DNA of 64,000 nt, from the NCBI RefSeq assembly GCF_964194155.1, contig NC_135915.1, forward strand, positions 4,154,001-4,218,000, read 5' to 3'. The notes below the pieces were generated by a model that saw only the letters and a list, made by a program, of their open reading frames with translations, was not told the origin of the DNA and searched no databases. A program made the translations under genes and the position numbers. Numbering within the stretch: position 1 is the first letter of the stretch; each line of letters starts with the position of its first letter. Shown piece by piece: positions 6,335 through 58,443 of the stretch. The stretch comes from Cetorhinus maximus (taxonomy: Eukaryota).

Positions 6335-7359
6335 TTATTGAACGTTACGATTGAACGAAACTCCGCGCGAGATGGTGGGAATTGGTTTGTGGTGTCTGCT
6401 TAATTGAAGTGCTGACGGCAGCGGCCGGAGCTTACTGATTGGCTGAGGCATCTGACAGCCAGGTTTTTTCTTCATTAATTGAATAATTGATGTAAACGGA
6501 TAATTCATCGCTTTCTTGATCTGCTCTCGGAACTTGGACTGAGTCACAGCGTAAATAAATGTGTTTGTGCAACAACTTAAATTCAGCAGCATCAATCCGA
6601 CTTGTTGTAATATATATTCAGGATAGGTGAGGTAAAATAACCCTCTCAGATCAATATAGAAGAATTTTACAACGTACACCGACCACAGGAGGGTGAAGGT
6701 GACGGATATGGTGAACAGTAAAATCATAGACTTCCTCCTGCTCTCCATCTCTGGGTCACTGCGATTTTCTCCCTTATTCTGAGCCCTCAGTCCCTTCCGG
6801 ACTCGACTGGTCACTAAAATGTGTCTGATTGTCAGAGCGTTAATCAGCAGAATTAAACCGAATGGGAGCAATGGGTTTAAAACTTTATCAAACCAGGAAA
6901 ATCCAACCCATCCGGGATCAGTAAAAACGCTTGGCTTTGCCAAACAGCCCAACGGTACATTGTCAATTATCTCTCCAGGTACCAGTGTAAAGTATTGGGG
7001 GATGTTTTTTAAACCGAGCAGGATACCGGTTGTCGCTAGAACCACAGCCGCAGTTTTCCCGGTGCAATATTCTGTTTTCAGCTTCGGGCAACGAATGGCC
7101 ACAAATCGATCAAAGGAGAAAGTGACGGTGAACCAGACAGAACAGTCTGTGGCTGCAATCTGCATGACACCATGAACACGACACACAGGAGTGAGGTACA
7201 GGAAACTCAGCGGAAAATAATAATAATTGATCTTGTTCAGTATGATGTTTGTGATAATGACCAGTAGATCCGCCGTTGCCATGGCCACCAGGTAGCGAGT
7301 GGTGCAGGTGGAGAGGCCGCACTTTCCCCGGAACAGGATCACAATTCCCAATAAATTAA
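6335..7359 (-). CDS. GPR139-like class A GPCR copy A, exon 2 (spliced protein 362 aa)
   Basis: Polypyrimidine tract and acceptor 'cttctcccctctctctgacag|TTAAT'. Hydrophobic TM segments with YLVAMATADL (TM2), SFDRFVAI (DRY-like) and CCTNTFIY (NPxxY-like) motifs. Conserved Cys in TM3 and ECL2. Frame is open to the stop at 6335. Confidence 0.93.
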
Positions 7360-7629
7360 CTGTCAGAGAGAGGGGAGAAGGTCCTGGAAATTAATGATTA
7401 AACATTCTCCTTGTCTGACCCTCACAGGGAGGTCAGAATTTTAGCATCAAAACAGAGTTTGGTCACAGGAGGACAGGCAGGCCACTGGCTGGTGAGTATT
7501 GCAGATTTTAGCTTTGTTTTCAGATTGAAATTAGCAGCTATGCTACAATCACTTGTTGATTATTATTAAATTTTGTAATTTAAGGATAGGGTGAAATTAA
7601 ACAAACAATAAAGGCAAAACAACAAAAAA

Positions 7630-10560
7630 GAGCCGGATGTGAGCGGGTGTATATAGAACAGGAGTTTACCTTTGAGGGAGCGGAGCGGCTTTATAAAGTG
7701 CAGAGCGGAGTGCCCCTTTGAGGGAGCAGAGCGGCTGTATAAAGAGGGATAGCGGAGTTTACCTGTGACGGAGCGGAGCGGCTGTATAAAGGGCGATGCA
7801 GAGTTCACCTGTCAGGGAGCCTGTTCTCACACAAGCACTGGGCGGTGCTGGAATTCGAAACGAGTGATGTCAGGACAAGGGAGAGAGCTGGATTGTACTT
7901 AGTGAGTAAGGTGATTTTTTTTTCCTGCATTTTAAAAATACATTACAGGAGGTAACAGGCACCGCATTTGACTTTATTTTGCCAGACATACTTTTTTCAT
8001 TTGGCTTAAATTTAGGGAAGCATTCTTTTTTTAATAAAAATGAAAAAAAAACGTATGGCAAAGGGACTCAGGCACGTGATTTGCATGAGGATTCTTCGAC
8101 ACGCATTGCAATGTGAATGACCACATGTGCAGGAAGTGCCACTGGCTTCACCAGCTTAAGCAATGGGTTTCAGAGTGTTAGCGTCAGCTGGAGACACAGC
8201 GGTGCATCCGCGAGGCTGAGAGTTAGGTGGATCGAACATTTTTAGATGAGGTCCCTCAGCAGCTTGAGGAAGTGCGGGAATGGGTGACCAACAGTCAGAA
8301 GATGCAAGGCAGGCATGAAATGAGAAATGCCACGGGTATGTATTGAGGAAAGCCCAAGGAAGGTAATGAGGAAATTCTGTTTTTCTGTGTTGCAAAAGGG
8401 TAAGGGTGAATGATGCTCTGGAGAGTGAAATCAGAGTCAAATTCCAGGCACTGTGGGTGTCTCAGCTGCATAAGTGGGGAGGGGTAAGACTACAAGAGCA
8501 ATAATAGTAGGAAACTAAATAGTGAGGGGTGCAGACAGGAGCGTCTGCAGCCGTAGACGTGAATCCAGGATGGTGTGTTGTCTCCCTGGTAGCAGGACCA
8601 AGGATATCACAGAACAGTTGCAGGGCACTCTGCACAGGTGAGTGCAAACTCAGTGGTCGTGGTTCACATTGGTACTAACGACTTAGGTAGAAAGGGATGA
8701 GATCCTGCAAAATGAATTTAGGGAGCTAGGCAGCAGATTAAAAAGCAGGACCTCAAATGTTGCAACCTCTGGGTGGCCCACTTGTCACGTGAAAGTGAAT
8801 ATAGGAATATGAGGATAGAGAAGATGAATGCGTGGCTGAAGAAATGTTGTGGGGGGGAGGCCTTCTGGTTCCTTGATAAGGGTATATTTGTGGCGAAGTT
8901 GGCACCTGTACACGTCGGACAGGTTGCACCTGAACTGGCACAGGGGCAACATCTTTGTAGGGAGGTTTGCTAGTGATGTTGAGTTGGGGTTGTGGCTGGA
9001 GGGTAATAATGAGTGAATTACAGTAGAGGGTGGTGCACAGCCAAAATAGAAGAGGAAATAAGTGAGTCTGGAAGGCAGAGCAAACGTTAAGGCACAGGGG
9101 AATAATGCAAGGCTGGTTCGCTGCTATTGTAATGAAAGGAGTCTTAAAAGTAAGGCAGATGGATTGAGGGTGCTGATTAACACATAGGAATATGATATTG
9201 TTGCTATCACAGAGACATGGTTGTTTGCTGGGCAGAACTGGCAGCTCAATATTCCAGGGTATAGAATGTTCCGGCATGACAGGGGGCTGATGGCGACTTG
9301 GTGGTGGGGGTTTAAAATGGAAGTTGGCATTGCACGATTGATAAAGAAGTAAATTAATGCCATAAGGAATGATAATATTTTAGAAGGTTGCTTAAATGAG
9401 GCCATCTGTAGAGAACTTAAATACAGTAGGAAATCACTTTGCTGGGGGTGCACTAAATGCCTCCAAAGAGTCAGGGGGGGCTAGAGGAGCGGATATATTG
9501 GAAAATCTCAGAGAATTGTACAAGGGCAATAATATTAGGAACTTTCAATTCACCAATGTTAACTTTGATAGTCTTAGTGTGAGAGGCTTCGATGTGGTGG
9601 AATTCTTAAAGTGCTTGAAAGAGAGCTTTTTAAGCCAACGCTAAAGCCCTACGAGACAAGGGGCGGCACTGGACCTAATCTTAGGGTGTGAAGCCAGGAA
9701 AGTGGTATAAGTGTCAGTGGGGAAAACCGTTTCGGGGAGAGAGACCGTAGTTCGTGAGGATTTAAGGTAGTTATTGAAAATGACAAAGATGGCTTGTAAA
9801 TGAAGGTCCTGAAATTGGGGAAGGCCGACTTCAATATTTTATGACAGGATGTGGCCAAAGTGGACTGGGCGCAGCTAATTGTAGGAAAGTCTACAACAGG
9901 TCTGCGGGAGTTATTCAGAAAGGAAATAGTGAGAGTTCAGGGCCAACATGTTCCTGTAGAGGTGAGGCGTAGGACGAACAATTCAAGGGGATACTAACTG
10001 TCAAGGGACATAGAGGATTGGATAAGGAAAAAGAAAAGTGACTGATGTTAGATACATGGGCGTTAAAACAGCGCAGAAGCCCTGGAGAAGCATAAAAAGT
10101 GCGTGGTGGTGGAGGGGTGTGGTAGTTAACAAGTAGCTAGGAGAGCGAACAGGAGACATTACCAAACACTGGTGGGAAAGGTAAAGGAAAACTCAAGGCA
10201 TTTTATAAATATATTCAGGGCATGAGGATAATCAGGGAAGGCGTAGGACCCATCAGGGTACCAAGTGGCAGATTGTGCTGTAACCGAAGGACAAAGGTGA
10301 GGTTATAAACGCTTACTTTTCATATGTGATGACTGTGGAGAAGGACGATGTAGGTGTTGAAATCAGGGAGGTGGAATGTGATATACTTGAACAAATTAGC
10401 ATTGAAAAGGTGGAGGTATTAGTGGTTTTTGCTTGAAAGTGTATAAATCAACAGGCCCAGAAGATATGTATCCCAGGCTGAAATATGAGGTAAGGGAGGA
10501 GGGTTCAATAGCTCTGACGCTTATTTTCATAAGATCTGGCCATTCGAGGGTTGCCAGTGT
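7630..10560 (+). mobile_element. CR1 LINE, 5' portion (tandem 5' repeats, ORF1 zinc-finger/esterase, APE endonuclease), decayed, inside the GPCR A intron
   Basis: RMVCCLPG and VVVHIGTND esterase-like motifs, CNERSLKSKADGL..YDIVAITETWL endonuclease start, and a GP-D-MYPRL-like motif near 10455. Many stops. Confidence 0.85.
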
Positions 10561-11180
10561 ACTGGAGGAGAGTGAGAGCGGAGAAGCGGGTTCATTAGCA
10601 GTGAGAGAGTAGTTGCCGCGCCAATAACAGTGAGAGAGTGAGAGAGGAGCAACGGGGCCATTAGCAGTCACAGAGTGAGAGAGGAGAAGCGGTGCCATTA
10701 GAAGCGAGAGAGTGTGAGAGAAGATGCGAGAGAAGCAGCGAGGCTGTTAGCAGGATTTAAGTGGCGGGGGAGGATTATCCAGAATGATGTTGGAATCTGC
10801 AACACACTGCCTTAGGGGATGGTAGAGGCAGGAACCCTCACAACATTTAAGAAGTATTTAGATGAGCAGTGGAAATGGCATCGCATACAGGGCTAGAGGC
10901 GTAGAGCTGGGAGATAGGTAGTTGACTCCTGGCACGGTCATGATGGGCCGTAGGACCTGTTTCTATGCTGTATAACTCGGATACTCTGTGACCCTCTGAG
11001 TCTATGAATGAGAGAGGAACAGCGCAGGCATTGGGAGTGGGAGAGTGCGAGAAACAACGGTGTCATTAACAGTGAGAGAACAGAAGGAACAGCGGGAACA
11101 TTAACAGTGAGACAGTGCGAGTTGAGTGAGCAACCATTGGAGCACACGGTGAGAGTGGCCACAGAGCATAACTGAGCAGG
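10560..11180 (+). repeat. Degenerate ~35-bp GA-rich repeat (gagagtgagagaggagaagcggggccattagca) interrupted by a CR1 3' end (~10770-11000)
   Basis: Recurrent 'ccattagcagtgagag' units; the paralog is at 51270-51970. Confidence 0.7.
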
Positions 11181-11269
11181 GGGAGAGGAGAGAGAATGAC
11201 ACCAAGAGATCATTAAACCTATTAGCTGAAGTAGGCTATTCGGACAACGAATCTGTTTGCAATTTAATG

Positions 11270-12120
11270 AGTTCATTGCTGACATGATAATCTTCAACTC
11301 TACTTTCCTTCCATTTCCCAGAACCTTTTGTTACCTTTTTGATTAATAATCTGCCTATCTCAGCCTTGAATATAACGAAAGACCCAGCCTTCAACGCCAA
11401 CAACTGTAAATAATCCACAGATTCACTACGATCTGAGCGAAGAAATTCCTCCTGCTCTCTGTTTTAAATAGGTGACCCCTAACTCTGAGATCATGCCCTC
11501 TGGTCCCCGACCCTCCGCAACGGGAATCAACTTCTCAGCATCTACCCTGCCAAGCTCCCCAAGTATCTTATTTGTTTCAATAAAGCTGCTTCTCAGTCTT
11601 CCAGACTCCAGTGAGTACAGGTATAATCTACTCAACCTCTCCACAGAAGAAAATCCCTCCATACCCAGCTCAATCTAGTGATACTTCTCTGGGCTGCCTC
11701 TAATGTCAGTATATAGTTCCCTAGATATGGGGCCAAAACTGATTACAGTATTCTAGGCATGGCCTAACTTATGCTGTGCAATGTATTAGCAAGACCATCC
11801 AATTTTTTCCTCCATTCCCTTTGAATATATGCCAACAATCCTGTCGCCTTCCCTATTATCTGCTGAAATTATATGTTTATTTTTTGGGGGGGATTCATGC
11901 AGGCGGACCCCCAAATCCCTCTGTGCTGCAGCTTCCTGCAGTCTTTCCCCAGTTAAATAATATTCAGCTCCTCTATTCTTCGTGCCACAGTGCATAATCT
12001 CACATTTTCCCACGTTATATTCCAGCTGCCAAGTGCTTGCCCACTAAGTAAACCTATCTCTACCCCTCTGTGGAAACTTTGTGTCATCTTCACCACTTGC
12101 CTTCCCATCTACTTTGTATC
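11270..12120 (-). mobile_element. CR1 3' fragment, antisense (mostly absent from copy B)
   Basis: Minus-strand GKCEIMHCG..QRDLGV and ERLSRLYLYSLES..LRSSFIE motifs. Confidence 0.85.
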
Positions 12121-12129
12121 ACCCATTAA

Positions 12130-15100
12130 AAAGAGATCATTAAAGAGTCCGGAGAGAGCCGATAGACCTTGAAATAGCAGAGAGGGAAAAGAGCGCGAGA
12201 ACAGCTGATTGATGGGTATGTGTAGTAAAAGTGAAATATTTAGTTTGATTTGAGGTCTGTAGGGTATTTTACATCTGAAAAATGCTTCTTAAGTATAAAT
12301 TCGGTCCTGTTGTGCAAAATAATAATAACAGTCAAGTGCTTCTAGGGGGAGATTCTTCAATTGTAACGAGCAGGGATGCTAGTATAATTGATTAATTAAT
12401 TAAAATACATTAGCGATGGCAGGACAGATAATGTGCAGCTGCAGCAGCATTTTGACCTGTTGGACACCAACGTGATCCACAGCGAGCACATCAGTAGCAA
12501 GAGTTTTCAGCTCGAGAACATCCGGATCAGAGTTAAGGAGCTGGTGTCCGAGCTGCAGACATTGCACAACATCAGGGAGGGGAAAGGTTCCTGGACACTT
12601 TGCACCAGGAGATGGTCACACCCCTCAGATCAGGAAAGTCAAATTTGGTCTGGGATCAGGGACAGGAGGTTCTGACCACAGGTGATGTAGTTATGGGGGC
12701 CAAGGTAGTCGCATTCCAGGGGTCTCGGCCACTGCAACTGTTCAACAGTGGCTAGGTTCTGGAAAGATGTGTGGACGAGAGCGGGAACTGCAAGGAGGAT
12801 GGGCAAACTGACCATGGCACCGTGGTACAGGCAGCCATTCAAGCTGGGGGTGGAATTAGGAAGTTTAGTAGTGGTAAGGGTCAGTATAATTGGCGAAGGG
12901 TGTTGTTCACTCCATGAGTTCAGAAGGCTCTGTTGCCTGCCCGGTGCCAGGACAACTCCTCAGGGCTGGAGATGAACTTGGAGTGGAGGGGAGAAATCAA
13001 CTTGTCACCATCCACGTTGATGCCAGCGACATTGACAGACCTAGAAACGAAATTCTGCTGAAAGAATTCGAACAGTTAGGAGCTAAATTAAAAAGCAAAA
13101 CTTCTGCGATAAATATCTTCGCATTACTACCTGAACCACGGGCAAACTGTTATAGGATAAATAAAGTCACAGACTGAAATATGTGCTCAAAGTTTGGTGT
13201 GGGAAAAATGGTTTTCAGTTCAAGGGGCACCGGCGCCAGTGCTGGGATAGGAGGGAGCTATTCCAGTGGGAGAGGCTTCACTTCAAAAATGCAGATTCCA
13301 GCGTCGTGGGGAATTGAATAACTAGGGCTCGAAAGAGTGTTTTAAGATAAATAGGTTGGCGGGATTTCTAGAGAGGGGATATGTAGGTTTAAGAAGCAAA
13401 ACGACGTGGGAATTTTGCTGGGCAGCTATTTAGGTAATGATATCCAGAATGTGACAGAAACGGACAGAGTGTAGAAACATAAAAAACACAACAGCAAAAT
13501 GAGTCAAAGGGGGAAATGGTAAACAAGTCAAAATTGATGCCTCATTACTTAATTGCTGGCAGTATTCAGAACCAAACAAATACATTAAAAGCACAAATAG
13601 AGGTTAATGGGAATGATCCTATAGCCATTACGGAGACGTGGTAACAAAGTGATCAAAGCTAATAAACAATTATTCAGGGGCATGTGATTTTCCAAAGGAC
13701 AGGCAGGATGAAAATGGTGGTGGGATAGCTTTTTTCAACGAGATTGAATACGTTGAATAGCAAGAGATTATTTTGATCTTCTGATGTAGAATTCACATGG
13801 GTAGAGGTCAGAAAGAATAAGGGGGTGAAGACAGTGGTGGGAGAAGTCTACAGGGCGCCTAACAGTAGCTATACCGTAGGAAAGAGAATAAGTCAGGAGA
13901 TAGTTATGACATGAAAAAATGGAAGTACATTAATCATGGGTGACATGAACCTCCATGTCGTTTGGGAAAATCACATTGGCAGATGCAGCAATGATCAGGA
14001 AATCATAGAATGTATCCGGGAGAGTTCCCTAGAACAATTTGCTGTGGATCCTATCAGGGATCAGTCTACTTTGGATCTGTTAATGTGTAATGAGGCAGGT
14101 TAATAAATTATCTCAGTGTAAAAGGTCCCCTCGGAAAAAATGTCCATAACATGGTAAAATGTATCATTCAGTTTGAGAATGAAAATGGGTCCGGAACAAC
14201 TGTGCTAAACTTACAAACGGATAATTACATAGGAATGAGGGCAGAGTTGGCTGGAGTTGACTGGGAAAGGAGTTCAACAGAAAAGACGGTTGATGAACAA
14301 TGGCAGACGTTTAAGAAAATAGTTCATGACTCATATCAGCGATATATCCCTGTGAGGAATTAGGATTCTAGGATGGACATAATCAACCATAGTTTACCCA
14401 AGAAGTTGAGGATAGAATCAAGCTGAAAAAAAAAGTACATACAATGTGGCAAAGGTTAGTTGCAAGCCAGAATTATGATTTTGTTTTAAAGCCAAGAAAA
14501 TTTAACCAAAAATACAATAACGTTTGGGAAATTATACATTGAGCGATAACTAGCAGGTCTTATAAAAACGTTACGTAGCAGCTGCTTTAAATACAAAAAA
14601 AAATGAGGAGAGAGGCGTAAGTGAATTGATGCCTCTTAGAGAACGACTCTGTGAAAATGATAATGGGTAACCAGGAAATGGCAGACGAGTTGAATTAATG
14701 CTTTGCATCAGTCTTCATGATAGACGACACTAAGTGCATTCCAAAAATACTAAATAATCAGGGGGGAAATGGGTGAAGGGAATAAAGAAATAACTATCGC
14801 TAGAGAAAAAGTGATCAAGAAAATAATGGAGCTAAAAGCCGATAAATCCCGGATGGGTTGCATCCTAGGATATTAAAGGAAATATCTGCACAAATAGCGG
14901 ATTCACTGACAGTCATCTTTCAAGAAACGTTTGATTGTGTAAAAGACTCAGAAGATTGGAAATCTGCCAAAATAAGAACCTTATTCAAAAAGGGAGGGAG
15001 AGAAAAAGCTCAGGTAACTATAGGTTAAATAGCTTAACATGCACTATTGGGAAAACGTTAGAGGTCTATTACAAGGAATATGATAGCAGAGCATTTAAAA

Positions 15101-16400
15101 TACAAAATATAATCAAACAGAGTTAGCATGGTTTGATGACCGGGAAATCATGCCTGGCAAATTCATTAGAATTATTTGAGGAAGAAAATGGAGAATGGAT
15201 AAAGGGGAAACAGGATATCCAATATTCTTGATTCCAAAAAGTCGTTCAATCAGGTACCAGGCACACGGCTGCTTAATAAGATAAGAGCACATGGTCTTGG
15301 GTTTCTACGCTAGCATGGATAGAGGATTTGCTAACCAATAGAAGACAGAGAGCTGAGATAAGGGGGGCATTTTCAGAATAGTAAACTGTTGTAGTGGAGC
15401 GCCACAGGGATCAGTGCTGGGACCACAGTTATGTACAATATATATTAATGGCTTATATGAGGGAAGTGAATGTACTATCGCCAAATTTCCAGTTATCACA
15501 CAAATTGGTGCGAAGGCAAGTCGTGAAGAAGTCTCAAAGGGCCTACAGGGGCATATAGAAATGTTAAGTGAGTTGGCAAAACTTGGCAGATGGCATATAT
15601 TATCGGAAACTGTGGGTCTATTCATGTTATCAGGAAGAATAGAGGAGCTCAATATTACTTAAATGGAGAAAGACTGCAGAAAGCTGCAGCAGAGAGGGAT
15701 TTGGGAGCCCGTGTACATGAATATGAAAACGTTCATTTCAGCAGGTGGTAGGGAAGGGAAATAAAATGTTGGCTTTAATTTCAAAGGGAATGGATTATAG
15801 AAATGGAGAAAGCATGCTAGAACTATACAAGGCTCTCGCTTATAATAATGTCAACAATTTTGGTCCCCTTATTTGAGGAAAGATATGCTGGAAGTGGAGG
15901 TAGCCCACGGAAGGTTCAATAGGCTGGTGCGGGATGTGGAGGGACTTTTCCATGTGGGGAGATTGATTAGACTGGGCTTGTACTCATTGGAGTTTAATAG
16001 AATGAGAGGGGACCTCATTGAAACATGTAAGATTTCGAAGGTGCTTGACACGGTACATGTTAAGAAGCTGTTTCCCCTTGTGGGAGGGTTCAGGACGAGT
16101 GGGCATCATCTCAGAGATAGCATTCACCAATTTAGTGCAGAGATTAGGAGGAATTTCTTCTCTCAGAGATTAGTGTATGTGTGGAATTAGTTCCCCTAGA
16201 GGGCTGTAGATGATGGGTCGTTAAATATATTCAAGGCTGAGCTCGACAGATTTTTAATCAGTCAGAGAATCAAGGGTTATGGGGAAATGTAGGATTGTGG
16301 AGGTGACGATGATCAGATCAGCAATGATCTCACTGAATGGCTGAGCTGACTTCATGGGCGGAATGACCTCCATCTGCTCCGATCTCTTCTGGCCTTATAA
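12130..16400 (+). mobile_element. Near full-length decayed CR1 LINE (ORF1 + ORF2 + 3' UTR)
   Basis: ORF1-like region with LCCLPGA and an esterase segment. Endonuclease IAITETW..IIMGD. RT region with GAPQGSVLGPQL and RLGLYSLEFNRMRGDLIE..FFSQR..VWN. Confidence 0.88.
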
Positions 16401-16689
16401 AATAATCAAGAAGAACATTGAAGCACTGTAAGAGTGATGCCGAATTGCTAAAATATCGTTGACATCTATTTCGTTAGAGCAGCTCAATAGAAAATGGAGG
16501 TAAATCCAGACATTTAACGTCATACATTCACTACCAAATATCTTCAACCAACATCAAAACACTTCCTGTGGTCAAACTATACAGAAGGTAAAACACAATG
16601 AGAGCTCCAAGGAATGGAAATACTGTTCATCAATAAAAACAAACATGATTTGCAAATCGAAACGAATCATTTCAGTGCGATTACTGTAC

Positions 16690-17600
16690 CACATCAGTTC
16701 AATTCGACACCGACAAATGTTCCCCGTCTTACATTAGCACTTGGAGCAGGTATTCCACTCTGGTTACTGACCTACACTCAAATGCAATTCTGCACTGCCA
16801 GAAAAACCATAAATAAATGTTGTTTGGGGTAATTTATTCCACTCTGGTTACTAACCCACACTCAGTACAATTTGACACTAACAGATTCAGTGAGTGAAGA
16901 ATGGTGACTGGTGCCAGGTATTCCACTCTGATTAACGACCCACACTCAGTACAATTCTACACTGACAGATAAAGCCAGTAATACACTTTTACTGGGGACC
17001 GGTATTCCACTCTGATTAATTACACACACTCAGTACAATTCTACACTGACAGATAAAGCCAGTAATACATATATACTGGCGACAGGTATTCCACTCTGGT
17101 TACTGACCCACACTTAGTACAATTTGACACCAGCAGAAAAACCCAGAAATATAGGGTCACTGGAGACAGGTACTCCATTCTGGTTATTAACCAACAATTA
17201 GAACAAGTTGACACTAACAGGTAGTCAGTGAAAGAGTGATGACTGGGGCCAGGTATTCCACTCTGATTAATCACCCACACTCAGTACAATTCTACACAGA
17301 AAGATAGACCCATTAATACATGAACACTGGGGCCAGGTATTCCACTCTGGTTACTGACCCACACTTAGGAAAATTTGACACTATCACATACAGTAATTGA
17401 AAGATTGGTGACTGTAGTCAGGTATTGCACTCTGATTAGATAGACCCAGAAACATATCGTCATTGGAGTCAAGTTTTCCAATCTGATTACTAACACACAC
17501 TTAGGACAATTTCACACGAACAGGCACAGTCCGTGAAAGAGTGGTGACTGGGGCCAGGTATTCCACTCTGATTAATGACCCACACTCTGGGTGAATTTCC
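16690..17600. repeat. 84-bp minisatellite near the 5' end of the GPCR A intron
   Basis: 'tattccactct' recurs at ~16751, 16835, 16919, 17003, 17087 and onward. Confidence 0.9.
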
Positions 17601-17920
17601 TCTGACTCCCACTAAACATTCCTTCAGAGATTTTGCCTTCACTAAAGTCTACTTTAACATTACACAATTTTCCACTGAATATTTGGACATAATTCATCAG
17701 AGAGCCTGCGATTTACCAGCAAAGGTTTATTTTCATTTGACAAAATTGAAGAAAGACGCAGAGACATTCAATACATTTTAATTTAGCACATTATATCGCT
17801 GATTCCGTGTGTCTATGACAGTGAGCACCGGATCAGCATGTAATAGTTTCAGTCACAGTTTAAAATGAGAGAGCCGCTCACATACAGATTTACACAACTT
17901 CAGTAGTTATGGTCAGTCAC

Positions 17921-17984
17921 CAGGAACACCTATAACAACAAGGATTATGAAGAATATTTTCTCAGCCACATCAATTGTGTGCAT
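17921..17984 (-). CDS. GPR139-like GPCR copy A, coding exon 1 (MHTIDVAEKIFFIILVVIGVP+G)
   Basis: ATG at 17984 and a hydrophobic first half of TM1. Phase-1 donor G|GTGACT at 17920 joins in frame to exon 2 (G|TT AAT TTA = V-N-L). The paralogous exon is at 58380-58443. Confidence 0.88.
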
Positions 17985-18061
17985 CGTTTCAGTTCAGTGC
18001 GAAGTGTTGTGCCCCTTTGTGCTGCTGGTAATCTCTCTGCCTTAAACGCTGAGCGAATACA

Positions 18062-18105
18062 TTCCCAAAGCCTTTAATTTATACCCTGTGGGATCACCTC
18101 AGGGA
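18062..18105 (-). promoter_or_regulatory. Core promoter of GPCR A: TATAAA (18078-18083) plus palindromic element
   Basis: TATAAA lies about 95 nt upstream of the ATG on the minus strand. The 44-bp block is identical in copy B. Confidence 0.65.
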
Positions 18106-22445: not shown

Positions 22446-22449
22446 CATT

Positions 22450-23135: not shown

Positions 23136-23139
23136 GTGG

Positions 23140-43503: not shown

Positions 43504-43555
<52 letters not shown>

Positions 43556-46090: not shown

Positions 46091-46199
46091 TCGGGAATTC
46101 TCCTTCGGGACTCTCCATTTGTTGAGGAGCTATCAGTCAAATATTGAAGGCTATGATTGAACGAAACTCCGCGCTAGATGGTTGAAATTGGTTTGTAGT

Positions 46200-46820
46200 G
46201 TATGATTAATTGAAATGCTGACCGCAGTGGTCGGAGCATACTGATTGGCTGATGCGGCTATCCATGATGGTGTTCAGCGTCCTGATGGTCTGATACGTAT
46301 GTGGTCAATGGTGAAGATCGCTGATTGGCTGAACTATCTGTGAGTCACTGTTTGATGCAACGTGATTGGATGATGCTGATGCCAGTCAGCTGTTGGAATG
46401 AACTGTTTGGCGGAACTTTCTATCAGTCAGCAGTTGTTGCTCCCTGAATGGTTGAGATGAATGTCGGCGCACAGTAAGAATACCCTGACTGGCCCACGTA
46501 ACTCTGTGCCAAAAGGCTGCAGCTCCCTGATTGGATGAAGCGACTGTCAGTTAGCTGGTAGGTCACATTGATTGGCTTAGCTACCTGTCATTCAGCGAGC
46601 GGTTCACCCTGAATGGCTGAGGTGGCTGTGGATGAAAATCTGATGCTGCTCCATTGGCTTCCGCGCCTGTCAGTTATGTGGCTGATTGGCACAAGCAGCT
46701 GTCCGTTAGCGGCGGCGATCCCTGATTGGGTGAGGCGACTGTCAGTCAGCATGCGGATCTCCCTCATCGGTGGAAGAGCCTGTCCGTCAGCAGAGGGAAC
46801 TCTCTGATTGGCTGAAGCAT
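46200..46820. repeat. Degenerate ~40-bp repeat rich in CTGATTGG (CCAAT boxes), 3' of GPCR B
   Basis: (C/T/G)TGATTGG at ~46241, 46321, 46362, 46528, 46569, 46682, 46722 and 46804, plus variants. Confidence 0.8.
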
Positions 46821-46827
46821 CTGACAG

Positions 46828-47726
46828 TCAGGTTTTTTTCATGAATTGAATAATTGATGTAACCGGATAATTCACCGTTTGCTTGATCTGCTCTCGGAAC
46901 TTAGACTGAGTCACCGCGTAAATAAATGTGTTTGTGCAGCAACTTAAACTCTGCAGCATATATCCGACTTGTTGGAATATATATTCAGGGTCGGTGAGGA
47001 AAAATAACCCTCTCACATCCATATAGAATAATTTTATAACATACACCGACCACAGGAGGATGAAGGTGACGGATATGGTGAACAGTAAAATCATAGACTT
47101 CCTCCTGCTCTCCATCTCTGGGTCACTGCGATTCTCTCCCTTACTCTGAGCCCTCAGTCCCTTCCGGACTCGACTGGCCACTAAAATGTGTCTGATTGTC
47201 AGAGCGTTAATCAGCAGAATTAAACCGAATGGGAGCAATGGGGTTACAACCTGATCAAAACAGGAAAATCCAACCCATCCGGGATCAGTAAAAACGCTTG
47301 GCTTTGCCAAACAGCCCCATGGTACATTGTTGATTATCGCTTCAGGTTCCAGTGTAAAGTAATGGGGGATGTTTTTTAAACCGAGCAGGATGCCGGTTGT
47401 CGCTAGAACCACAGCCGCAGTTTTCCCGGTGCAATATTCTGTTTTCAGCTTCTGGCAACGAATGGCCACAAATCGATCAAAGGAGAAAGTCACGGTGAAC
47501 CAGACAGAACAGTCCCTGGCAGCAGTAACCAGGACAGCGAGAACACGACACGCAGGAGTGAGGTTCAGGAAACTCAGTGGGAAATAATAATAATTGATCT
47601 TGTTCAGTATGACATTTGTGATAATGTGCAGTAGATCCGCCGTTGCCATGGCCACCAGGTAGCGAGTGGTGCAGGTGGAGAGGCCGCACTTTGCCCTGGA
47701 CAGGATCACAATCCCCAGTAAATTAA
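46828..47726 (-). CDS. GPR139-like class A GPCR copy B, exon 2 (spliced protein 320 aa)
   Basis: Acceptor 'cttccctctgacag|TTAATTTACTGGGG'. Same motifs as copy A (SFDRFVAI, CCTNTFIY). Ends MKKT-stop. Confidence 0.93.
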
Positions 47727-47999
47727 CTGTCAGAGGGAAGGAAGAAGGGACTGGAAATTAATGATTACACATTCTCCGTGTCTGACCCTCACAGGGAGGA
47801 CAGGATTTCAGCACCAAAACAGAGTTTGGTCACAGGAGGACAGGCAAGCGACTGGCTGGCGAGTATTTCAGATTTTAGCATTGTTTTTAGGTTACAATTA
47901 GCAGCTGAGTTACAATTACTTGTTGATTATTATTATATTTAGTAATTTAAAGATAGTGGGAAATTAAACAAACAATAAAGTAGAAACAACAAAAAAGAG

Positions 48000-50900
48000 C
48001 CAGACGTGAGTGGGTGTTTAAAGAGCATGAGTTTACATGTGAAGGTTTGGAGCGGCTGTATAAAGAGCGAGAGTGGAGCAGAAGCATATAGAGCAGGAGT
48101 TTACCTGTGAGGGAGTGGAGCGGCTGTATAAAGAGCGAGAGTGGAGCGGGTGCGTATAGAGCAGGAGTTTATGTGAGGGAATGGAGCGTCTATATAAAGT
48201 GCATAACGGAGTCCCCATTTGAGGGAGCAGAGCGGCTGTATAAAGAGCGATAGTGGAGCGGGTGCATATGAAGCAGGAGTTTACTTGTGAGGGAGCAGAG
48301 CAGCTGTATAAAGAGCGAGAGTGGAGCGGGTTCATATAGAGCAGGAGATTACTTGTGAGGGAGCGGAGCGGCTGTATAAAGTACATAGCGGAGTTTACCT
48401 GTGAGGGAGCGGAGCAGCTGTAAAAAGAGCGTTAACGGATTTTACCTGTGACGGAGCGGTGCGGCTATATAAAGAGTGCTGCAGAGTTTACCCGTCAGGG
48501 GGCCTGTTCTCACACAGGCACTGGGCAGTGGGGGAATTCGAAAGGAGTGATGTCAGGACAAGGGAGAGAGCTGGTTTGTAGTTAGTGAGTAAGGTGCATT
48601 CTTTTTTCTCCACTTTAAAACTACATTACAGTAGGTAACAGTCACCGCATTTGACTCTATTCTGCCAGAAAAATGCTAAATCGTTTTTTACTTGGGTTAA
48701 AATTAGGGAAACAGTTTTTTTTTAAAATAAAAATCAAACAAAACGTATGGCAAAGGGACTCATTCACGTGATTTGCATGAGGATTCTTCGACACGCATTG
48801 CAATCTGAATGACCACATGTGCACGAAGTGCCACTGGATTCACCAGCTTGAGCAATGGGTTTCAGAGCTTTCGCATCAGCTGGAGACACCGCGGTGCATC
48901 CACGAGGTTGAGAGTTAAGTGGATAGAACATTTTTGGATGTGGTCACATAGCAGCTTGAGGAAGTGTGAGAATGGGTGACCACCAGTCAGAAGAAGGTAG
49001 ACAGACATTTAATTAGGAAAGCCGCAGGTATGTATTGAGGAAAGCACCATGCAGGTAATGAGGAAACCCTGTGTTGGAAAATGGTAAGGGTGAATGTTTC
49101 ACTGGAGAGTGCAACCACAGTTTAAATTCCAGGCACTGTGGGTGTCTCAGCTGCACAAGTGGGGAGGGGTAAGAGTGCAACAGCAATAGTTGTAGGAGAT
49201 TAAATCGTGAGGGGTGCAGACAGGAGCTTCTGCAGCCGTAGACGTGACTCCAGGATGGTGTGTTGCCTCCCTGGTAGCAGGATCAAGGATATCACAGAAC
49301 AGTTGCAGGGCATTCTGAAGGGGGAGGGAAAACTCAGAGGTCGTTGTTCACGTTGATACTAAGGACTCAGGTAGAAAGGGATGAGGTCCTGCAAAATGAA
49401 CTTCGGGAGCTAGGCAGCAGATTAAAAAGCAAGACTTCAAAGGTTGCAACCTCTGGATGGCCCCCTTGTCACGTGAAAGTGAGTATAGGAATATGAGGAT
49501 AGAGAAGATGAATGCGTGGCTGAAGAAATGTTGCGGGTGGGAGGCCTTCTGGTTCCTTGATCAGGGTATGTTTCAGGCGAATTGGCACCTGTACACGTCG
49601 GACAGGTTGCACCTGAACTGGCACAGGAGCAACATTTTTTTGGGAGGTTTGCTAGTGATGTTGGAGTGGGGTTGTTGGGGGAGGGTAAAGCTAATATCGT
49701 ATTTTATGTAATAATGAGTGAAGTTACAGTAGATGGTGGTGCACAGCCTATTATATAAGACGGACGAAATGTGTCTGGAAGACAGAGCAAACATAGACCT
49801 GTTAAGGCACAAGGGAATAATGCCAGGCTGGTTCGCTGCTATTGTAATGAAAGGAGTCTTAAAAGTAGGGCAGATGAATTGCGGGTGCTGATTAACACAT
49901 GGGAATATGATATTGTTGCTATCACAGAGAGGTGGTTGATGGTGGCGCAGTGCTGCCAGCTCAATGTTGCAGGGTATAGAATGTTCAGGCATGACAGAGG
50001 GCTGATGGCGACTTGGTGGTGGGGGCTTAAAATGGAAGTTGGCACTGCACGGTTGATCAAGAAGTAAATTAATGCCATAAGGAGTGATGGTATTTTAGAA
50101 GGTTCCTCAAATGAGGCCATATGGAGAGAACTTAAATACAGTAGGCAATCACTTTGCTGGGGGTGCACTAAATACCTCCAAAGAATCAGGGGGGCTAGAC
50201 GAGCGGATATGTAGGAAAATCTCAGAGATGTGTACAAGGGTAATAATAGTGGAAAATTTCAATTCACCAATGTTAACTTGGATAGTCTTAGTGTGAGAGG
50301 CTTCGATGTGGCATTCTTAAAGTGCTTGAAAGAGAGCTTTTTGAGCCAACGCTAAAGCCCTACGAGAGAAGGGGTGGCACTGGACCAAATCTTAGGAAGT
50401 GAAGCCTGGAAAGTGGTATAAGTGTCTGTGGGGGAAAGCATTTCGGGGAGAGAGACCATAGTTCTTGCGGTTTCAAGATAGTTTTTGAAAATGACAAAGA
50501 TGGCTTTTAAATAAAGGTGCTGAAATTGGGGAAGGCCGACTTCAATATTTTATGACAGGATGTGGTCAATGGGGACTTGAAGCAGCTAATTGTAGGAAAC
50601 CCTACAACAGGCCAGCTGGAGTCATTCAGAAAGGAAATAGTGAGAGTTCAGGTCCAACATGTTCCCGTAGAGGTGAGGGGTAGGACAAAAAATTCCAGGT
50701 GATACTGGTTGTCAAGGGATATGGAGGATTGGATAAGGAAAAAGAAAATTGACTGATGGTGGATACAGAGGGGTTAAAACAGCGCGGAAGCCCTGGAGAA
50801 GCATAAAAAGTGAGTGGTGGGGGATGGGTGTGGTAGTTAAGAAGTAGTTAGGAGAGCGAACATGAGGCATTACCAAGCACTGGCGGGAAAGGTAAAGGAA

Positions 50901-51270
50901 AACCCAAGGCATTTTATAAATATATTCAGGGCATGAGGATAACCAGGGAAAGAGTAGGACCCATCAGGGAACAAAGTGGCAGATTGTGCTGTAACCGAAG
51001 GACATAGGTGAGGTTATAAACGCTTACTTTTCATCTGTGATGTTTGTGGAGAAGGACGATGTAGGTGCTGAGATCAGGGAGGGGGACTGTGATATATTTG
51101 AACATATTAGCATAGAAAGGATGGAGGTATTAATGGTTTTTATTTGAAAGTGGATAAATCCACAGGCCCAGATGAGATGTATCCCAGGCTGTAATAGGAG
51201 TTAAGGGAGAAGGGTTCAATGGCTCTGACGCTAATTTTCAAATTATCTGGCTATTTGAGGGGTGCCAGTG
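48000..51270 (+). mobile_element. CR1 LINE 5' portion, copy B
   Basis: Paralogous to 7630-10560. ORF 49771-50067 contains ARLVRCYCNERSLKSRADELRVLINTWEYDIVAITE. Confidence 0.85.
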
Positions 51271-52095
51271 TACTGGAGGAGAGTGAGAGAGGAGAAGTAG
51301 GGCCATTAGCAGTGAGAGAGTTGTAGCAGCGCCATTAACAGTGAGGGAGTGAGAGAGGAGCAAGGGGGCCATTAGCGCTGAGAGAGAGAGAGAGGAGAAG
51401 CGGGGCCATTAGCAGTAAGAGGGTGAGAGAGTAGCATCGGGTCCATTAGCATTGTGAGAGTGAGAGAGGAGAAGCGGGGCCATTAGGAGCGAGACATTGT
51501 GAGAGCAGCTGCTAGAGAAGTAGCGAGGTGTTAGCAGGATTTGAGAGGCGGGGGCGGAACTCACCCAGAAAGATGTTTGAAACTGCAACACACTGCCTGA
51601 GGGGCTGGTAGAGGCAGGAACCCTCACAACATTTAAGAAGTATTTAGATGAGCACTTGAAATTGCCTCGCATACAGGGTTAAGGGTCATGAGCTGGTAAA
51701 TGGGATTAGTATAGATAGGTACTTGACGCCTGGCACGGTCTCGATGGGCTGTAGGACCTGTTTCTATGCTGTACAACTTGGATACTCTGTCACCCTCTGA
51801 CTCTATGAGTGAGAGAGGAACAGAGTAAGCACTGAGAGTGGGAGAGTGCGAGAAAGACCAGTGCCATTATAAGTGAGAGAGCAGAAGGAACAGCGGGGAC
51901 ATTAACAGTGAGACAGTGCGAGTTGAGAGGGCGACCATTGGAGTAAACGGAGAGAGTGGCCACAGAGCATTACTGGGCAGGGGGAGAGGAGAGAGCATGA
52001 AAACAAGAGATCATCAAACGTATTAGCTGAAGTAGGCTATTCGGACAATGAATCTGTTCGCCATTTAATGAGGTCACTGCTGACATGATAATCTT

Positions 52096-54070
52096 ACGTT
52101 CGGGGAAGAAGCGGAGAACCACCAGACCATCCCGGTGGGGGATGGAGGTGTAGAGGGATTGGACTATCTTGACTGCATTCTCTCTCCCCTTGTCCAGTCC
52201 CTTCCCACCTACATTCATGATTTTACTGACACCCTACATCATATGTACAATTTCCAGTTCCCTGGCTCCAAACGCCTCCTCTTCACCATGGACGACCAAT
52301 CCCTCTACACCTCAATCCCCCACTGGGATGGTCTGATGGCTCTCCGCTTCTTCCTCGAACAGAGGCCGGAACAATTCCCATTCACCACTACTCTCCTCCG
52401 TCTGGCTTAACTTGTTCACACACTAAACAATTTCTCCTTTAACTCCTCTCACTTCCTCCAAATAATTCTTGTGGTTATGGGTAAACGTCCTACTCCAGCC
52501 CCCTCCCACAACTCTTTCTCCGGTACATCGATGATTACTTCGGTGCTGCGTCATGCTCTCGTCTGCACCTGGAAAAATGTATTAATTTTGCTTACAATTT
52601 CCACCCCTCCATCATTTTCACGTAGTCCATCCCTGACACCTCCCTTCCCTTCCTTGACCTCTCTGTCTCAATTTCTAGTGATAGACTGTCCACCAATATC
52701 CATTACAAGCCTACCAACACCCACAGCTACCTAGACTACAGCTCCTCACACCTCACTTCCGGTAAGGACTCCATCCCATTCTCTCAGTTCCTTCGCCTTC
52801 GTCGCATCTTTTCTGATGATGCCACTTTCAAAAACATGTCCTCTGACATGTCCTCCTTCCTTAACTGAGTTGTTCCACCCACTGTAGTTGACAGGGCCCT
52901 CAACCGTGTCCGGCCCATCTCCCGCCATCCGCCCACACAACCTTCTTCTCCCTCCCAGAAAAATGATAGGGTCCCCATTGTACTCATTTATCACCCCACC
53001 AGCCTCTGCATTCAAAGGATCATCTTCCGCCATTTCCACCAACTCCAGCATGATGCCACCACCAAACACATCTTCCCTTCACCCCCGCCGGCGGCATTCC
53101 ACAGGGATCGTTCCCTCCGGGACACCCTGGTCCACTCCTCCCATGCCACCGCAGAAGGTGCAACACCTGCCCCTTTCCTTCCCCTCTCCTCACCGTCCGA
53201 GGGCTAAAAACTTTCTTTCAAGTGAAGCAGCATTTCACTTGCACTTCCCTCAATTTAGTCTACTGCATTCATTGCTCCCAATGCGGTTTCATCTACATTG
53301 GAGAGATCAAATGCAGACTGGGTGACCGCTTTTCAAAACACCTTCGGTCTGTCCACAAACATTGCCCAGACCTCCCTGTCGCTTGCCATTTCAACATTCC
53401 ACCCTGCTATCATGCCCACCTGTCCGTCCTTGACTTGCTGCATTGTTCCAGTGAAGCTCAATGCAAACTGGAGGAACAGCTCCTCATCTTCCGACTAGGC
53501 ACTTTACAGCCTTCCGGACTGAATATTGAGTTCAACAATTTTAGTTCATGAACTATCTCCTCCATTCCCACCCCCTTGCACCCCCCCACCACCCCCCGGC
53601 CCAACCCCCCCCCCCCCCCCCCCCCGCCCCCCCCACCACCACCACCACCACCTCCACACTTTTTTCTTTCCCACCTTTCCATTATTTTTAAGTGTATTCC
53701 CATCCATTGTTTTATCTCTACCTTTTAGACTTTTTTGATTCCATCACCCCATCCCACCCCCACTAGGGCTATCTGTACCTTGCTTGTCCAGCTTTCTACC
53801 CTTAATTAGCACATTCCTTAGATAATATCACCACCGTCAACATCTCTTTGTCCTTTTGTCTGGGACATCTTTTGGTTATCTCCACCTATCACTGGTCCTC
53901 TATCCAGCTCTACTTGTCCCATCCCCCCTTAAACCAGCTTACATTTCACCTCTCTTCTATTTTTACGTAATTCTGTTGAAGGGTCATTCGGACTCGAAAC
54001 GTTAACTGTGTTCCTCTCCGCAGATGCTGCCAGACCTGCTGAGTTTTTCCAGGTATTTTTGTTTTTGTTT
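52096..54070 (+). mobile_element. Penelope-like element (RT part, GIY-YIG endonuclease, tail), copy B only
   Basis: TMDDQSLYTSIP RT motif and FTCTSLNLVYCIHCSQCGFIYIGEIKCRLGDRF GIY-YIG motif. Tail is shared with 39370-39470. Confidence 0.92.
53968..54008 (+). ncRNA. Hammerhead-ribozyme-like motif in Penelope tail
   Basis: CUGUUGA-A-GGGUC-AUUCG-GACUC-GAAAC-GUU-AACU. Confidence 0.6.
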
Positions 54071-56820
54071 TGGTAAACAGTGAAAATTAATGCCTCTCTA
54101 CTTACTTGCTGGTTATATTAAGAAGTAAACAAATAAATTAACGGTACAAATGAAGCTTAATGGGTATGATTTTTTAGCCATTGCAGAGACGTTGTTACAG
54201 AGAAATCAAAGCTGTGAACTAAATATTCAGGTGTATGTGATATTGGAAAGGACAAGCAGGAAGAAAAGGATGGTGGAACAGCTTTTTTTGCACGAGATAT
54301 AATATGTACGATAGCAAGATATTATTTTGGGTCAGAAGATGTAGAATCGACTTAATGGGTATGATTTTAGGTGGAGGGAAGAAATAACAAGAGCGTGAAG
54401 ACAGTGTTGGGAGTATTCTATAGGGCGCCTAACAGTAGCTATACTGTAGGAATGAGAATAAGCCAGGAGATAATTGTGCCATGTAAAAATGTCAGTTCAT
54501 TTATCATTGGTGACTTTAATCTTCATTCCGTTTGGGAAAATCACATTGACAGAGGTAGCCACGAGCAATAAATCATAGAGTGTATCCGGGAGAATTACCT
54601 AGAACAATTTGCTGTGGATCCAATCAGGGATTACGCTACTTTGCAGCTGTTAATGTGTAATGAGGCACGTTTAATAAATGATCAGCGTAAAAGATCACCT
54701 TGAAAAAAAATTCCATAACATGGTGTGATTTTGCATTCAGTTTGAGAGTGAAAATGGGTCCGAAACAACTGTGCTAAACGTACAAAAAGGCAATTACAAA
54801 AGAATGAGGGCAAAGTTGGCTGGAGTAGACTGGGAAATGAGTTTAACAGAGAAGATGCTTGATGAACAATGGCAGACATTTAAGAAAATAGTTCATGACT
54901 CATATCAAAGACATATCCCCATGAGGAATTAGGATTCAAGAATGGAGATAAACCAAACATGGTTAAACAAACAAGTTGTGGAGAGAATCATATTTAAATA
55001 CATTCAATGTGGCAAAGGTTGGTGGTAAACCAGAGGATTAAGACATTTTTAACAACCAGGAAAAGTTGACCAAAAATACATTAAAGATTGGGAAAATAAA
55101 CATTGAGCATAAACTAGCAGGTAATATAAAAATGTTCAGTAGCAGCTTCTTTAAATATATAAAATTGAAGAGAGAGGTTTATGTGAGCTATTGCCCCTTA
55201 GAGAATGAGGATTTGGAAATAATAATGTGGAATCAGGAAATGGCAGAGGAGATGAATTCATGCTTTGCATCAGTCTTCACGATAGAAGACAAGGACATCA
55301 TTCCAAAAAATACCAAATAATCAAGGCACAAAATGGGGGGAGGGTATAAATGAATAACTATTACTGGAGAAAAGGTGCGAAGGAAACTAATGGGGCTAAA
55401 AGCCGATAAATCCCTGATAGGTTGCATCCTAGGATATGAAAGGAAGTAGCTACACAAAAGTGGATGCACTGGTAGGAGTCTTCCAAGAATCCTTTGATTC
55501 TGGAAAAGACAAGAAGATTGGAATTCTTCCAAAGTAACGACCTTATTAAAAATAAGAGGTAGAGAAAATCTCAGGTAACTGTAGGCCACTTAGCTTAACA
55601 TCCCCAATTGATAAAGTGTTAAATCTATTATAAAGAATGTATTAGCAGAGCATTGAAAATACGAATTATAATCAAGCAGAGTTAGCAAGGTTTGATGAAT
55701 GGGAAATGGTGCCTGGTAAATGTATTAGAATTATTTGAGGAAGTAAAGGCAGAATCGATCAAGGGGAAACAGGAGATGTAATATACTTGGACTTCCAAAA
55801 AGGCGTTCAGTAAGGCACCATGCATACGGCTGCTTAATACGTTAAGGGCTCATGGTGATGGGGGTAGTATATTAGCTGGGATCGAGAATTTTCTAACTAA
55901 TAGAAGACAGAGATTTGAGAGAAAAGGGGCATTTTCAGAATGGTAAACTGTAACTAGTGGAGTGCCACAGGAATCAGTGTTGGGGCCACAATTATTTACA
56001 ATATTTATTAATGACTTATATGAGGGAAGTGAATGAACTATCGCCACATTTCCAGATATCACATAAATTGCTGCGAAGGCAAGTGATGAGGGTGACTCAA
56101 AGATTCTACAGGGGGATAGACAAACGTAAATTGAAAGGGCAAAACTTGGCAGATGGCATCGAATATCGGAAACTGTGGGATTATGGAACAATAGAGACGC
56201 TCAATATTACTTAAATAGAGAAAGATTGCAGAAAGCTGCAGCACAGCGGGATATGGGAGCCCACGCACCTGAATATGAAAACGCTAACATTCAAGATCAG
56301 TAGGTAAGCAGGAAGGCAAATGAAATGTTGGCTTTAATTTCAAAGGGAATGGATTATTAAAATCGGGAAGTCATGCTGAAACTATAAAAGGCACTCAAAT
56401 AGAATACTGCCAACAATTTTGGTCTCCTTATTTGAGGAAAGATATGCTGGAAGTGGAGGCCACCACAGGAGGTTCAATAGGCTGGTGCTGGATGTGGAGG
56501 GACGGGTTCCTATGGGCAGATTGATTAGATTGGGCCTGTACTCATTGGAGTTTAATAGAATGAGAGCGGACCTTATTGAAACATATTGGATTCCTGGGGG
56601 CCTTGACAAGGAACATGCTGAGAAGTTGTTTCCCTTTGTGGGAGGGTTTCGTCCAAGCCGGCATCATTTCAGAGAAAGGGGTCACCAATTTAATACAGAG
56701 ATGAGGAGCAATTTATTCTATCCAAGAGTAGTGTATGTGTGGAATAGTTCCCGTAAAGGGCTGTAGTTGATGGGTCGTTAAGTATATTCAAGGCTGTGCT
56801 CGACTGATTTTTGATCATTT
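54071..56820 (+). mobile_element. CR1 ORF2 remnant, copy B (ORF1 end removed)
   Basis: Paralogous to 13517-16260; begins abruptly after the Penelope insertion. Confidence 0.85.
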
Positions 56821-57129
56821 AAGAAACAATCGACAAGAACATTGGAACACTGTAAGAGTGCTGGCGGATTGCTTCAATACCAGGAACAGGCTGACATCTA
56901 TTTCTGCTGGAGCAGCTCAATAGAAAATGGAGCTATATCCAGACATTTAACTTCACACACTCATTACCAAATATCTTCAACCAACATCAAAACACTTCCT
57001 GTTGTCAAATTATTCACATGGCAAAAGACAGAGAAAGCTCCATGGAATGGAAAGATCACTAATCAAAAAATAAAAAGCATGATTTCCAAATCAAACCGAT
57101 TTCTTTCATTCCAGTTGCTGACCCGCACT

Positions 57130-58060
57130 CCGGTCAATTCTACATCGACAAATTCCCCCAGTCATACATTATCACTTGGAGCAGGTATTCCACTCTGGAC
57201 ACTGACCTACTTTCAATGCAATTCTGCACTGCCAGATATAACCAATAATAATTGTTGACTGGGGTCATCTATTCCATTCTGGTTGCTAAGCAACACTTAG
57301 TACAGTTTGAAACCAGCAGATACAGTCAGTGAAAGAGTGGTGACTGGGGCCTGGTATTCCACTCTGGGCACTGACCTATGCTCAATGCAATGTGCACTGC
57401 CAGATATAACCAATAATAATTGTTGACTGGGGTCAGCTATTCCATTCTGGTTGCTAAGCAACACTTAGTACAGTTTGAAACCAGCAGATACAGTCAGTGA
57501 AAGAGTGGTGACTGGGGCCAGGTATACCACTCTGATTAAAGACCCAGACACAGTACAATTCTACATTGACAGATAGACCCAATAATACATGATCATTGAG
57601 GCCAGTTATTCCACTTTGGTTACTCATCCACACTTAGTGCAATTTGAAACTAACAGTTAGACCCAGAAATATCTTGTCACTGGAGTCATGTATTCCACTG
57701 AGGTTACTAACCCATACTTCGGACAATTTGACACTTACAGATGCAGTCAGTGAATGAGTGGTGACTTTTTCAGGTATTCCACTCTGATTAATGACCCACA
57801 CTCAGTTCAATTTTACACTGACAGGTACACCCAGTAACACATGGTCACTGGGGCCATGTATTCCACTTTGGTTACTGATGCACACTCAGTACAATTCTAC
57901 ACTGACAGATGAACCCAGTAATACATGGTCACTGGGGCCATGTATTCCGCTTTGGTTACTGATGCACACTCAGTACAATTCTACACTAGCAGTTAGACCC
58001 AGTAATACATGGTCACTGGGGCCAGGTGTTCCACTCTGTTCACTGACCCACACTCTTGGT
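57130..58060. repeat. 84-bp minisatellite, copy B
   Basis: Same unit (ggtattccactctggttactgacccacactcagtacaatt...). Confidence 0.9.
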
Positions 58061-58379
58061 GATTTTCCTCTGAACACCACTAAACATTCCATCAGAGATT
58101 TTGCCTTCACTGAGGTCTATTTAAACGTTTCCAAAAAATATTAAGACGTAATTCATCAGAGAGCCTGTGAGTTACGAACAAATGCTTATTTTCATTTGAC
58201 AAAATTAAATAAAGCCGCAGAGACATTTCCAGACATATGAATTCAGCAAATTATATCACTGATTCGATGTATCTTAACAGTGACCACCAGATCAGCATGT
58301 AATATGTTCAGTCACAGTTTAAAATGAGAGAACAGCTCACATACAGATTTACACAAGTTCAATGGCTATGGTCACTCAC

Positions 58380-58443
58380 CAGGAACACCTATAACAGCAA
58401 GGATTGGGTAGAATATTTTCTCAGCCACAGAAATTGATAGCAT
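58380..58443 (-). CDS. GPR139-like GPCR copy B, coding exon 1 (MLSISVAEKIFYPILAVIGVP+G)
   Basis: ATG at 58443 and canonical phase-1 donor G|GTGAGT. Splices in frame to 47726. Confidence 0.9.

Follow-up and report, generated by a model that had tools for sequence, protein, structure and literature searches.

The 64,000-nucleotide stretch of Cetorhinus maximus DNA analysed here (contig NC_135915.1, positions 4,154,001 to 4,218,000 of the forward strand; hereafter the window) carries two class A G-protein-coupled receptor (GPCR) genes, both on the minus strand, with two exons each and no internal stop, which belong to a family of roughly 800–950 related receptor loci arrayed on many scaffolds of this genome. 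The family undergoes birth and death of copies, and its variation is centred on the ligand pocket and the extracellular half of the receptor, with a conserved intracellular face. We regard it as probably a selected repertoire of ligand sensors, for which a chemosensory role is in the lead. Lineage-expanded class A receptor repertoires are of a general kind already known; this family is apparently undescribed as such, although individual genes already figure in automatic annotations.

Size and range of the family

The preliminary description of the window presented the genes as a tandem pair from an expanding receptor family. The expansion proves far larger than was guessed, and the term 'tandem pair' has to be abandoned: the two genes are among at least 82 copies that occupy the same 5.7-Mb contig at a median spacing of 55 kb. 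When the 3.99-Gb genome was searched at the protein level, 5,027 candidates emerged, of which the best 141 were scored; all 141 match at 71–100% identity and 114 contain no stop inside the match (the counts of 82 and 114 were made by hand from the table of these best 141). Back-translated motifs extend the family well beyond this set, the motif FDRF[VI]AI[CR]C of transmembrane helix (TM) 3 having 954 genome matches and a DPEME[ST]RR[KR]S[IMV]-like pattern in intracellular loop (ICL) 3 having 804, against none for either control. Because the TM3 motif is carried by only 92 of 103 known intact copies, its count is a lower bound for the number of loci. Forty motif matches were fetched from the first 100 listed (scaffolds C6–C22, a non-random sample), and all 40 align to gene 2, at 31–71% identity, with an open exon 2 in 21 of them; several hundred intact genes would be a fair estimate. 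For the analyses below, 111 exon-2 sequences were assembled, from which 8 broken ones were removed, leaving 103 that comprise 101 distinct sequences and 70 below 99% identity. Near-identical copies are probably in part assembly duplicates or very recent copies.

Two database searches with family members returned 1,925 and 2,090 proteins, and the named proteins among the best 120 of each come from sharks, skates and rays. Nearly all named relatives within these best 120 are labelled 'probable' or 'putative G-protein coupled receptor 139', a label that is evidently mistaken for the family, as discussed below.

Two features of the genomic distribution deserve mention. Motif variants occur in mirrored order on two scaffolds (C16:0.8–4.9 Mb and C20:0.5–5.1 Mb), which suggests either that a large stretch near the scaffold ends has been duplicated in inverted orientation or that one of the two is an assembly duplicate. 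A subfamily with one exon 1 peptide (loci L192–L203) lies on many unplaced contigs (C45, C56, C73, C141, C175 and others) and may represent a very recent amplification or haplotype duplicates.

Pocket variation and selection

Genes 1 and 2 share 272 of 320 residues and 883 of 960 bases. When the receptor is divided by helix anchors, 30 of 127 positions differ in the extracellular half and 10 of 166 in the intracellular half (Fisher p=2.2e-5), so that the clustering of amino-acid changes on the extracellular and pocket-facing side, remarked on in the preliminary description, exceeds chance; the segments of TM3, extracellular loop (ECL) 2, TM5 and TM6–TM7 that it quoted are correct. Its further observation, that the intracellular parts are almost identical even at the DNA level, is real and is explained by ordinary purifying selection rather than homogenisation. 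Gene conversion as the cause was ruled out, since the intracellular synonymous difference matches that of the intron (median 0.071 versus 0.075 over 153 of 171 pairs, those with alignable introns); for the window pair the values are 0.071 and 0.119.

The same partition holds across the family. With residues numbered from motif anchors (approximate in TM4), variation is concentrated at 3.28–3.33 in TM3 and at 2.65, 4.60, ECL2 (45.51), 5.42, 6.58, 7.39 and 7.42, and the same helix faces are variable in separate lineages. Variability profiles of this genome and of other species are correlated (Spearman 0.71), and 29 of the other species' 30 top sites are extracellular. Residues N1.50, D2.50, DRF, P5.50, F6.44, W6.48, N7.49 and Y7.53 are kept, and the ratio of non-synonymous to synonymous rates (omega) of the intracellular half is 0.43. 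An AlphaFold model of gene 2 shows seven helices, an ECL2 hairpin and helix 8 (predicted local distance difference test 81.8, predicted template modelling score 0.78).

We fitted our own codon models to the 70 copies below 99% identity (293 codons, fixed tree, sites by empirical Bayes). The one-ratio model M0 gives an omega of 0.66. The comparison of M7 with M8, which had been proposed as a check, yields a statistic of 198, alongside 162 for M1a/M2a and 150 for M8a/M8, with about 10% of sites at an omega of 2.6. All 18 selected sites fall in the extracellular half, at 2.65, 3.28, 3.29, 3.32, 3.33, 4.54, 4.60, 45.51, 5.42, 6.58, 7.39 and 7.42 and at six loop sites. A separate tree for each gene quarter gives statistics of 51.6, 57.6, 0 and 21.4, the zero belonging to the TM5–ICL3 quarter, and a statistic of 92 remains when double and triple base changes are allowed. 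To avoid circularity, the 30 most variable sites were taken from 108 proteins of other species only; in this genome, given a synonymous rate of their own, they have an omega of 1.63 (statistic 15.5). At these sites the window pair has a non-synonymous difference (pN) of 0.224, where nearby non-coding DNA differs by about 0.11 (p=0.006). For nine disjoint pairs the non-synonymous difference is 0.087, above the 0.050 of introns and the 0.055 of synonymous positions. CpG mutability was considered as the cause of the selected sites and set aside, its excess there being only small (0.19 versus 0.14).

Several results weigh against strong selection, and with it against a selected repertoire. The main one is that the statistic drops to 10.2 (p=0.006), with two sites above 0.9, when multi-base changes are combined with site-rate classes. 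Taken as a whole, the extracellular half has an omega of 0.88; the pair alone has one of 0.79; and a hand-picked pocket list, drawn up after the variability table had been seen and replaced for that reason by the sites from other species, gives an omega of 1.27 and a non-significant statistic of 3.6. The synonymous rate is raised at conserved extracellular codons (1.23 versus 0.75), and a recombination test gives p=0.015 on third positions and p=0.10 on all sites, which suggests that copies exchange patches; such exchange would inflate the site tests. Nineteen of the 40 sampled loci are broken, assembly duplicates may be present among the copies (the 103 intact sequences fall to 70 at the 99% identity cut), and normal activation is not assured because P6.50 (present in 1 of 101 copies) and P7.50 are lost. 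Finally, in a skate sensory-ganglion dataset, one gene bearing the automatic GPR139-type name, which may or may not belong to the family, is given as having 'little or no expression' (PMC13694853).

Much of this could be the mark of genomic drift, in which a duplication-prone unit in repeat-rich regions and near scaffold ends produces copies that are for the most part redundant or barely expressed, under relaxed constraint, with patches swapped among them: the broken loci, the overall extracellular omega, the small statistic of the richest model, the raised synonymous rate in the extracellular half and the presence of identical and near-identical copies would all follow. We nevertheless consider a mostly drifting family unlikely, as drift accounts poorly for the low intracellular omega and for motifs that are near-invariant over hundreds of copies and many species, for non-synonymous change that exceeds intron divergence at independently chosen sites, for the recurrence of the same variable helix faces, and for the retention of a promoter-like block (see below). 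We conclude that diversifying selection on the pocket is moderate and real, that it is added to relaxed constraint, and that purifying selection acts inside. The diversifying selection proposed in the preliminary description therefore stands as to its presence, being significant in every whole-gene model and at the independent sites, while its strength depends on the model, from 198 down to 10.

Relation to GPR139 and to other receptor repertoires

GPR139 and GPR142 are class A orphan receptors responsive to aromatic amino acids and peptides, and the preliminary description had linked the window genes to their pharmacology. This link is not borne out. A motif from the solved GPR139 chain identifies one locus in the genome, L112, which encodes the GPR139 orthologue and has the GPR139 ICL2 motif. 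Used as a query, this shark GPR139 retrieves a gene that we take to be GPR142-like (L113, 55% identical to GPR139), next a lone gene (L114) and, after these, distant members of the family. With GPR139, L113 and L114, genes 1 and 2 share 19–25% identity, the family values being 24–25% for L112, 19–21% for L113 and 22–25% for L114. In a tree of 71 rows (quick search, LG+G4, 9 near-duplicate rows removed, with a long-branch warning and no outside outgroup), 63 family rows lie on one side of a branch with SH-aLRT support of 99 and include species-specific sub-clades. The family is accordingly best placed as another clade, orthologous neither to GPR139, a place held by L112, nor to GPR142, a place filled by L113; each of these is a separate single locus, in contrast to the hundreds of family copies. 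The residues given as GPR139 agonist anchors in PMC12775434, E3x32, R6x51 and N7x38, are virtually absent: among 101 family copies E3.32 occurs once and R6.51 and N7.39 never. In the 108 proteins of other species the anchor residues are outside the five commonest, and N7.39 is found in 2 of 25 distant copies. The ligands are likely to be other than the aromatic amino acids of GPR139.

The family does retain a likeness to GPR139 in N5.58, in the missing P7.50 and in a splice acceptor directly before N1.50, the site of which is common to gene 1, GPR139, the GPR142-like gene and L114. These characters, with which the Atlas neighbours described below agree, suggest a place on a wider GPR139/GPR142/FMRFamide/Srw-like branch. 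GPR139 is also the best match of the family among solved structures by sequence, although a weak one (E 3.4e-4) that the prolactin-releasing peptide receptor equals, and it differs in that C3.25 and C45.50, present in 100 of 101 family copies, are both absent from shark GPR139.

Two relatives stand out. The lone GPR139-like gene L114 (G000:C5:143968875-143969729) resembles the family in its exon boundary, in C3.25 and in a 'KCG(L/M)S' motif in ICL1, but forms its own clade and retains E3.32, P6.50 and R6.51. Among jawed fishes it is single-copy in each species, from chimaera to teleosts as well as in coelacanth and lungfish. It is possibly a better candidate than the family for GPR139-like pharmacology, and possibly the GPR210A/B of PMC6504862. 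In the tree, L115 (G000:C34:1059262-1060083) branches first within the family; its relatives across sharks and rays are 66–86% identical, and it represents a slow-evolving subfamily that may have kept the ancestral ligand.

The peptide-receptor-like fold, the ECL2 hairpin and the C3.25–C45.50 pair favour peptide or polar ligands, and in this model-based view water-borne peptides or small polar molecules are the most likely ones. Peptides made by the animal itself or by conspecifics could also be imagined as ligands, in pheromone, sperm or reproductive-tract signalling, the receptors diversifying together with a peptide family. Outside the family, the closest resemblance among named proteins is to peptide-type receptors, including those of the FMRFamide and Srw kinds; peptide receptors rank first in a Foldseek search with the gene 2 model, GPR139 appearing at ranks 19 and 22; and GPR139 itself clusters with MIP/sex-peptide, proctolin and FMRFamide receptors in PMC12208981. 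However, the template modelling scores of 0.64–0.75 do not discriminate within class A, and hundreds of receptors would require a matching ligand family, of which none is known, no search having been made for one. We regard such co-diversification as quite improbable.

For the repertoire of ligand sensors that we favour, each copy would bind different ligands through its varied pocket and signal through the common intracellular face. Selection would retain new pocket shapes, with purifying selection holding the DRF motif, ICL2, ICL3 and helix 8; from the constancy of these elements we infer that all copies may share a single G-protein pathway and a single cell type. Vertebrate OR, TAAR, V1R/ORA, V2R/OlfC and T2R receptors, like the MRGPR and FPR families, share arrays on many chromosomes, birth and death, broken copies, pocket variation and a short N-terminus. 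The shark family is likewise arrayed and a large multigene family under birth and death, with many broken copies, a short N-terminus and pocket-centred variation under diversifying selection (weakly so in the richest model). It belongs by sequence to none of these repertoires, its coding region is split by an intron, and it probably stems instead from the GPR139/FMRFamide/Srw-like branch. Nematode Srw and mollusc, nemertean and rotifer clusters are its Atlas neighbours by features and structure (7tm_1 with Srw/Srx/Srsx), as tentative leads; the shark proteins, in contrast, match only 7tm_1 in Pfam, and the shark and invertebrate expansions would be independent.

The leading guess for the site of expression, which we put forward tentatively, is a chemosensory epithelium of nose, taste, skin or gut. 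Contigs of six public runs, presumed to be of RNA, contain related sequence; the listed pieces cross exon–intron borders, with no exon 1–exon 2 joint among the joints listed. The arrays, pocket selection and short N-terminus would equally suit receptors of leukocytes, mast-like cells or nociceptors that serve in immune or danger sensing, their pockets keeping pace with ligands of microbes or parasites; formyl-peptide receptors and MRGPRs have this role in mammals. Lineage-specific bursts fit such an arms race, and a whale shark study reports MAS1 and related receptors missing in cartilaginous fishes (PMC8455134). An immune role nonetheless appears rather unlikely, as the family is not named as an immune marker in the supplements searched, which are small files, and as structure, fold and neighbour searches revealed no sequence kinship to FPR or MRGPR.

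A full-text literature search, with most subscription papers outside its scope and an earlier notice therefore possible, returned no description of this expansion. The family is not mentioned in the supplements searched of PMC10115646 (except one scanned file), PMC8455134 (except files 13–24), PMC7677710 and PMC13007054, and that of PMC13200729 contains only true GPR139. PMC8455134, PMC11979771 and PMC10116579 credit cartilaginous fishes with few GPCRs and a very small olfactory repertoire; the catshark count in the last of these is 34 V2R and 4–9 each of OR, TAAR and ORA, about one-tenth the size of the present family. An intact set of several hundred receptors with varied pockets contradicts the description 'few GPCRs' outright, and the family is a direct candidate for the means by which sharks sample chemical space. 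It may be, though we hold this less likely than not, that it constitutes a further elasmobranch chemoreceptor family of several hundred genes, drawn from the peptide-receptor branch and concealed by the automatic 'probable GPR139' label, and that this, rather than a few dozen V2Rs, would be the main chemical-sensing repertoire. Whatever the tissue, the family probably ranks with the largest in these animals, and it is testable at once on existing tissue RNA-seq.

Gene structure and the repeated unit

Both genes are intact, as first described, with GT/AG introns in phase 1. Coding exon 1 of gene 1 (17921..17984, minus strand) comprises 21 codons and 1 base, was identified by tblastn with exon 1 of gene 2 (E 3.7e-11) and borders a GT donor. 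It is followed by an intron of 10,561 nt (7360..17920) directly before N1.50, with its AG acceptor at 7360–7361, and by exon 2 (6335..7359), an open frame from V22 through TM1 to the C-terminus (Pfam 7tm_1, E 3.6e-16). Gene 2, on the same strand, consists of a 64-base coding exon 1 with a GT donor (58380..58443), an intron of 10,653 nt (47727..58379) and exon 2 (46828..47726), the open frame with a Pfam 7tm_1 match that is covered by the AlphaFold model. The proteins are 362 (gene 1) and 320 (gene 2) residues long, and 7tm_1 is the sole Pfam match in either, at 59.8 and 59.2 bits, above the curated cut-off of 30.5; with the seven modelled helices, this identifies them as class A GPCRs. The last 42 residues of gene 1 (about 6335–6463) have no counterpart in gene 2, and C-terminal tails differ among family copies, an A-rich run ahead of the stop codon varying in length. 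The N-terminus is short and free of N-glycosylation sequons in both genes, as had been noted. In gene 2 a single sequon lies on the extracellular side, at N76 in ECL1 (window 47562–47564); 30 of 101 copies have N at this residue and 100 of 101 have T78, and a glycosylation site thus appears to be gained and lost across copies at a position flagged as selected.

Each gene is carried by one copy of a repeated unit detected by self-blastn, the first at 1..20776, extending past the left edge of the window, and the second at 41033..64000, offset by about 41 kb. The non-coding DNA of the two forms collinear blocks 70–89% identical. Upstream of each ATG is a 27-base block that ends in TATAAA, at a distance of 93 nt in gene 1 (18078..18104, minus strand) and 88 nt in gene 2 (58532..58558, minus strand). 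When up to 2 mismatches are allowed, it matches 179 genome sites, against none for the control, and an in-frame exon 1 follows it at 17 of 22 loci examined. It is at least 96% identical where the surrounding upstream DNA is 48–81% identical, a contrast inflated by the choice of loci through the motif itself. The block is likely a core promoter and may provide a regulatory input common to the family copies. Unequal crossing-over of units of 40–55 kb that bear this block would spread the copies, and such promoter-bearing duplicates would feed the birth-and-death family. Two CCC-NNN-GG words precede the TATA-like box in both blocks and resemble what we take to be AP-2 or EBF-type sites; the binding factor, once known, would give a hint of the cell type.

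The introns contain repeats of two further kinds. An 84-base minisatellite lies just after exon 1 in both units (16747–17448 and 57157–58055); a zinc-finger array as its identity was dismissed, given stops in every frame and no C2H2 spacing. The intron of gene 2 also contains, at 52250–54150, a very high-copy repeat that is matched by thousands of contigs in public runs.

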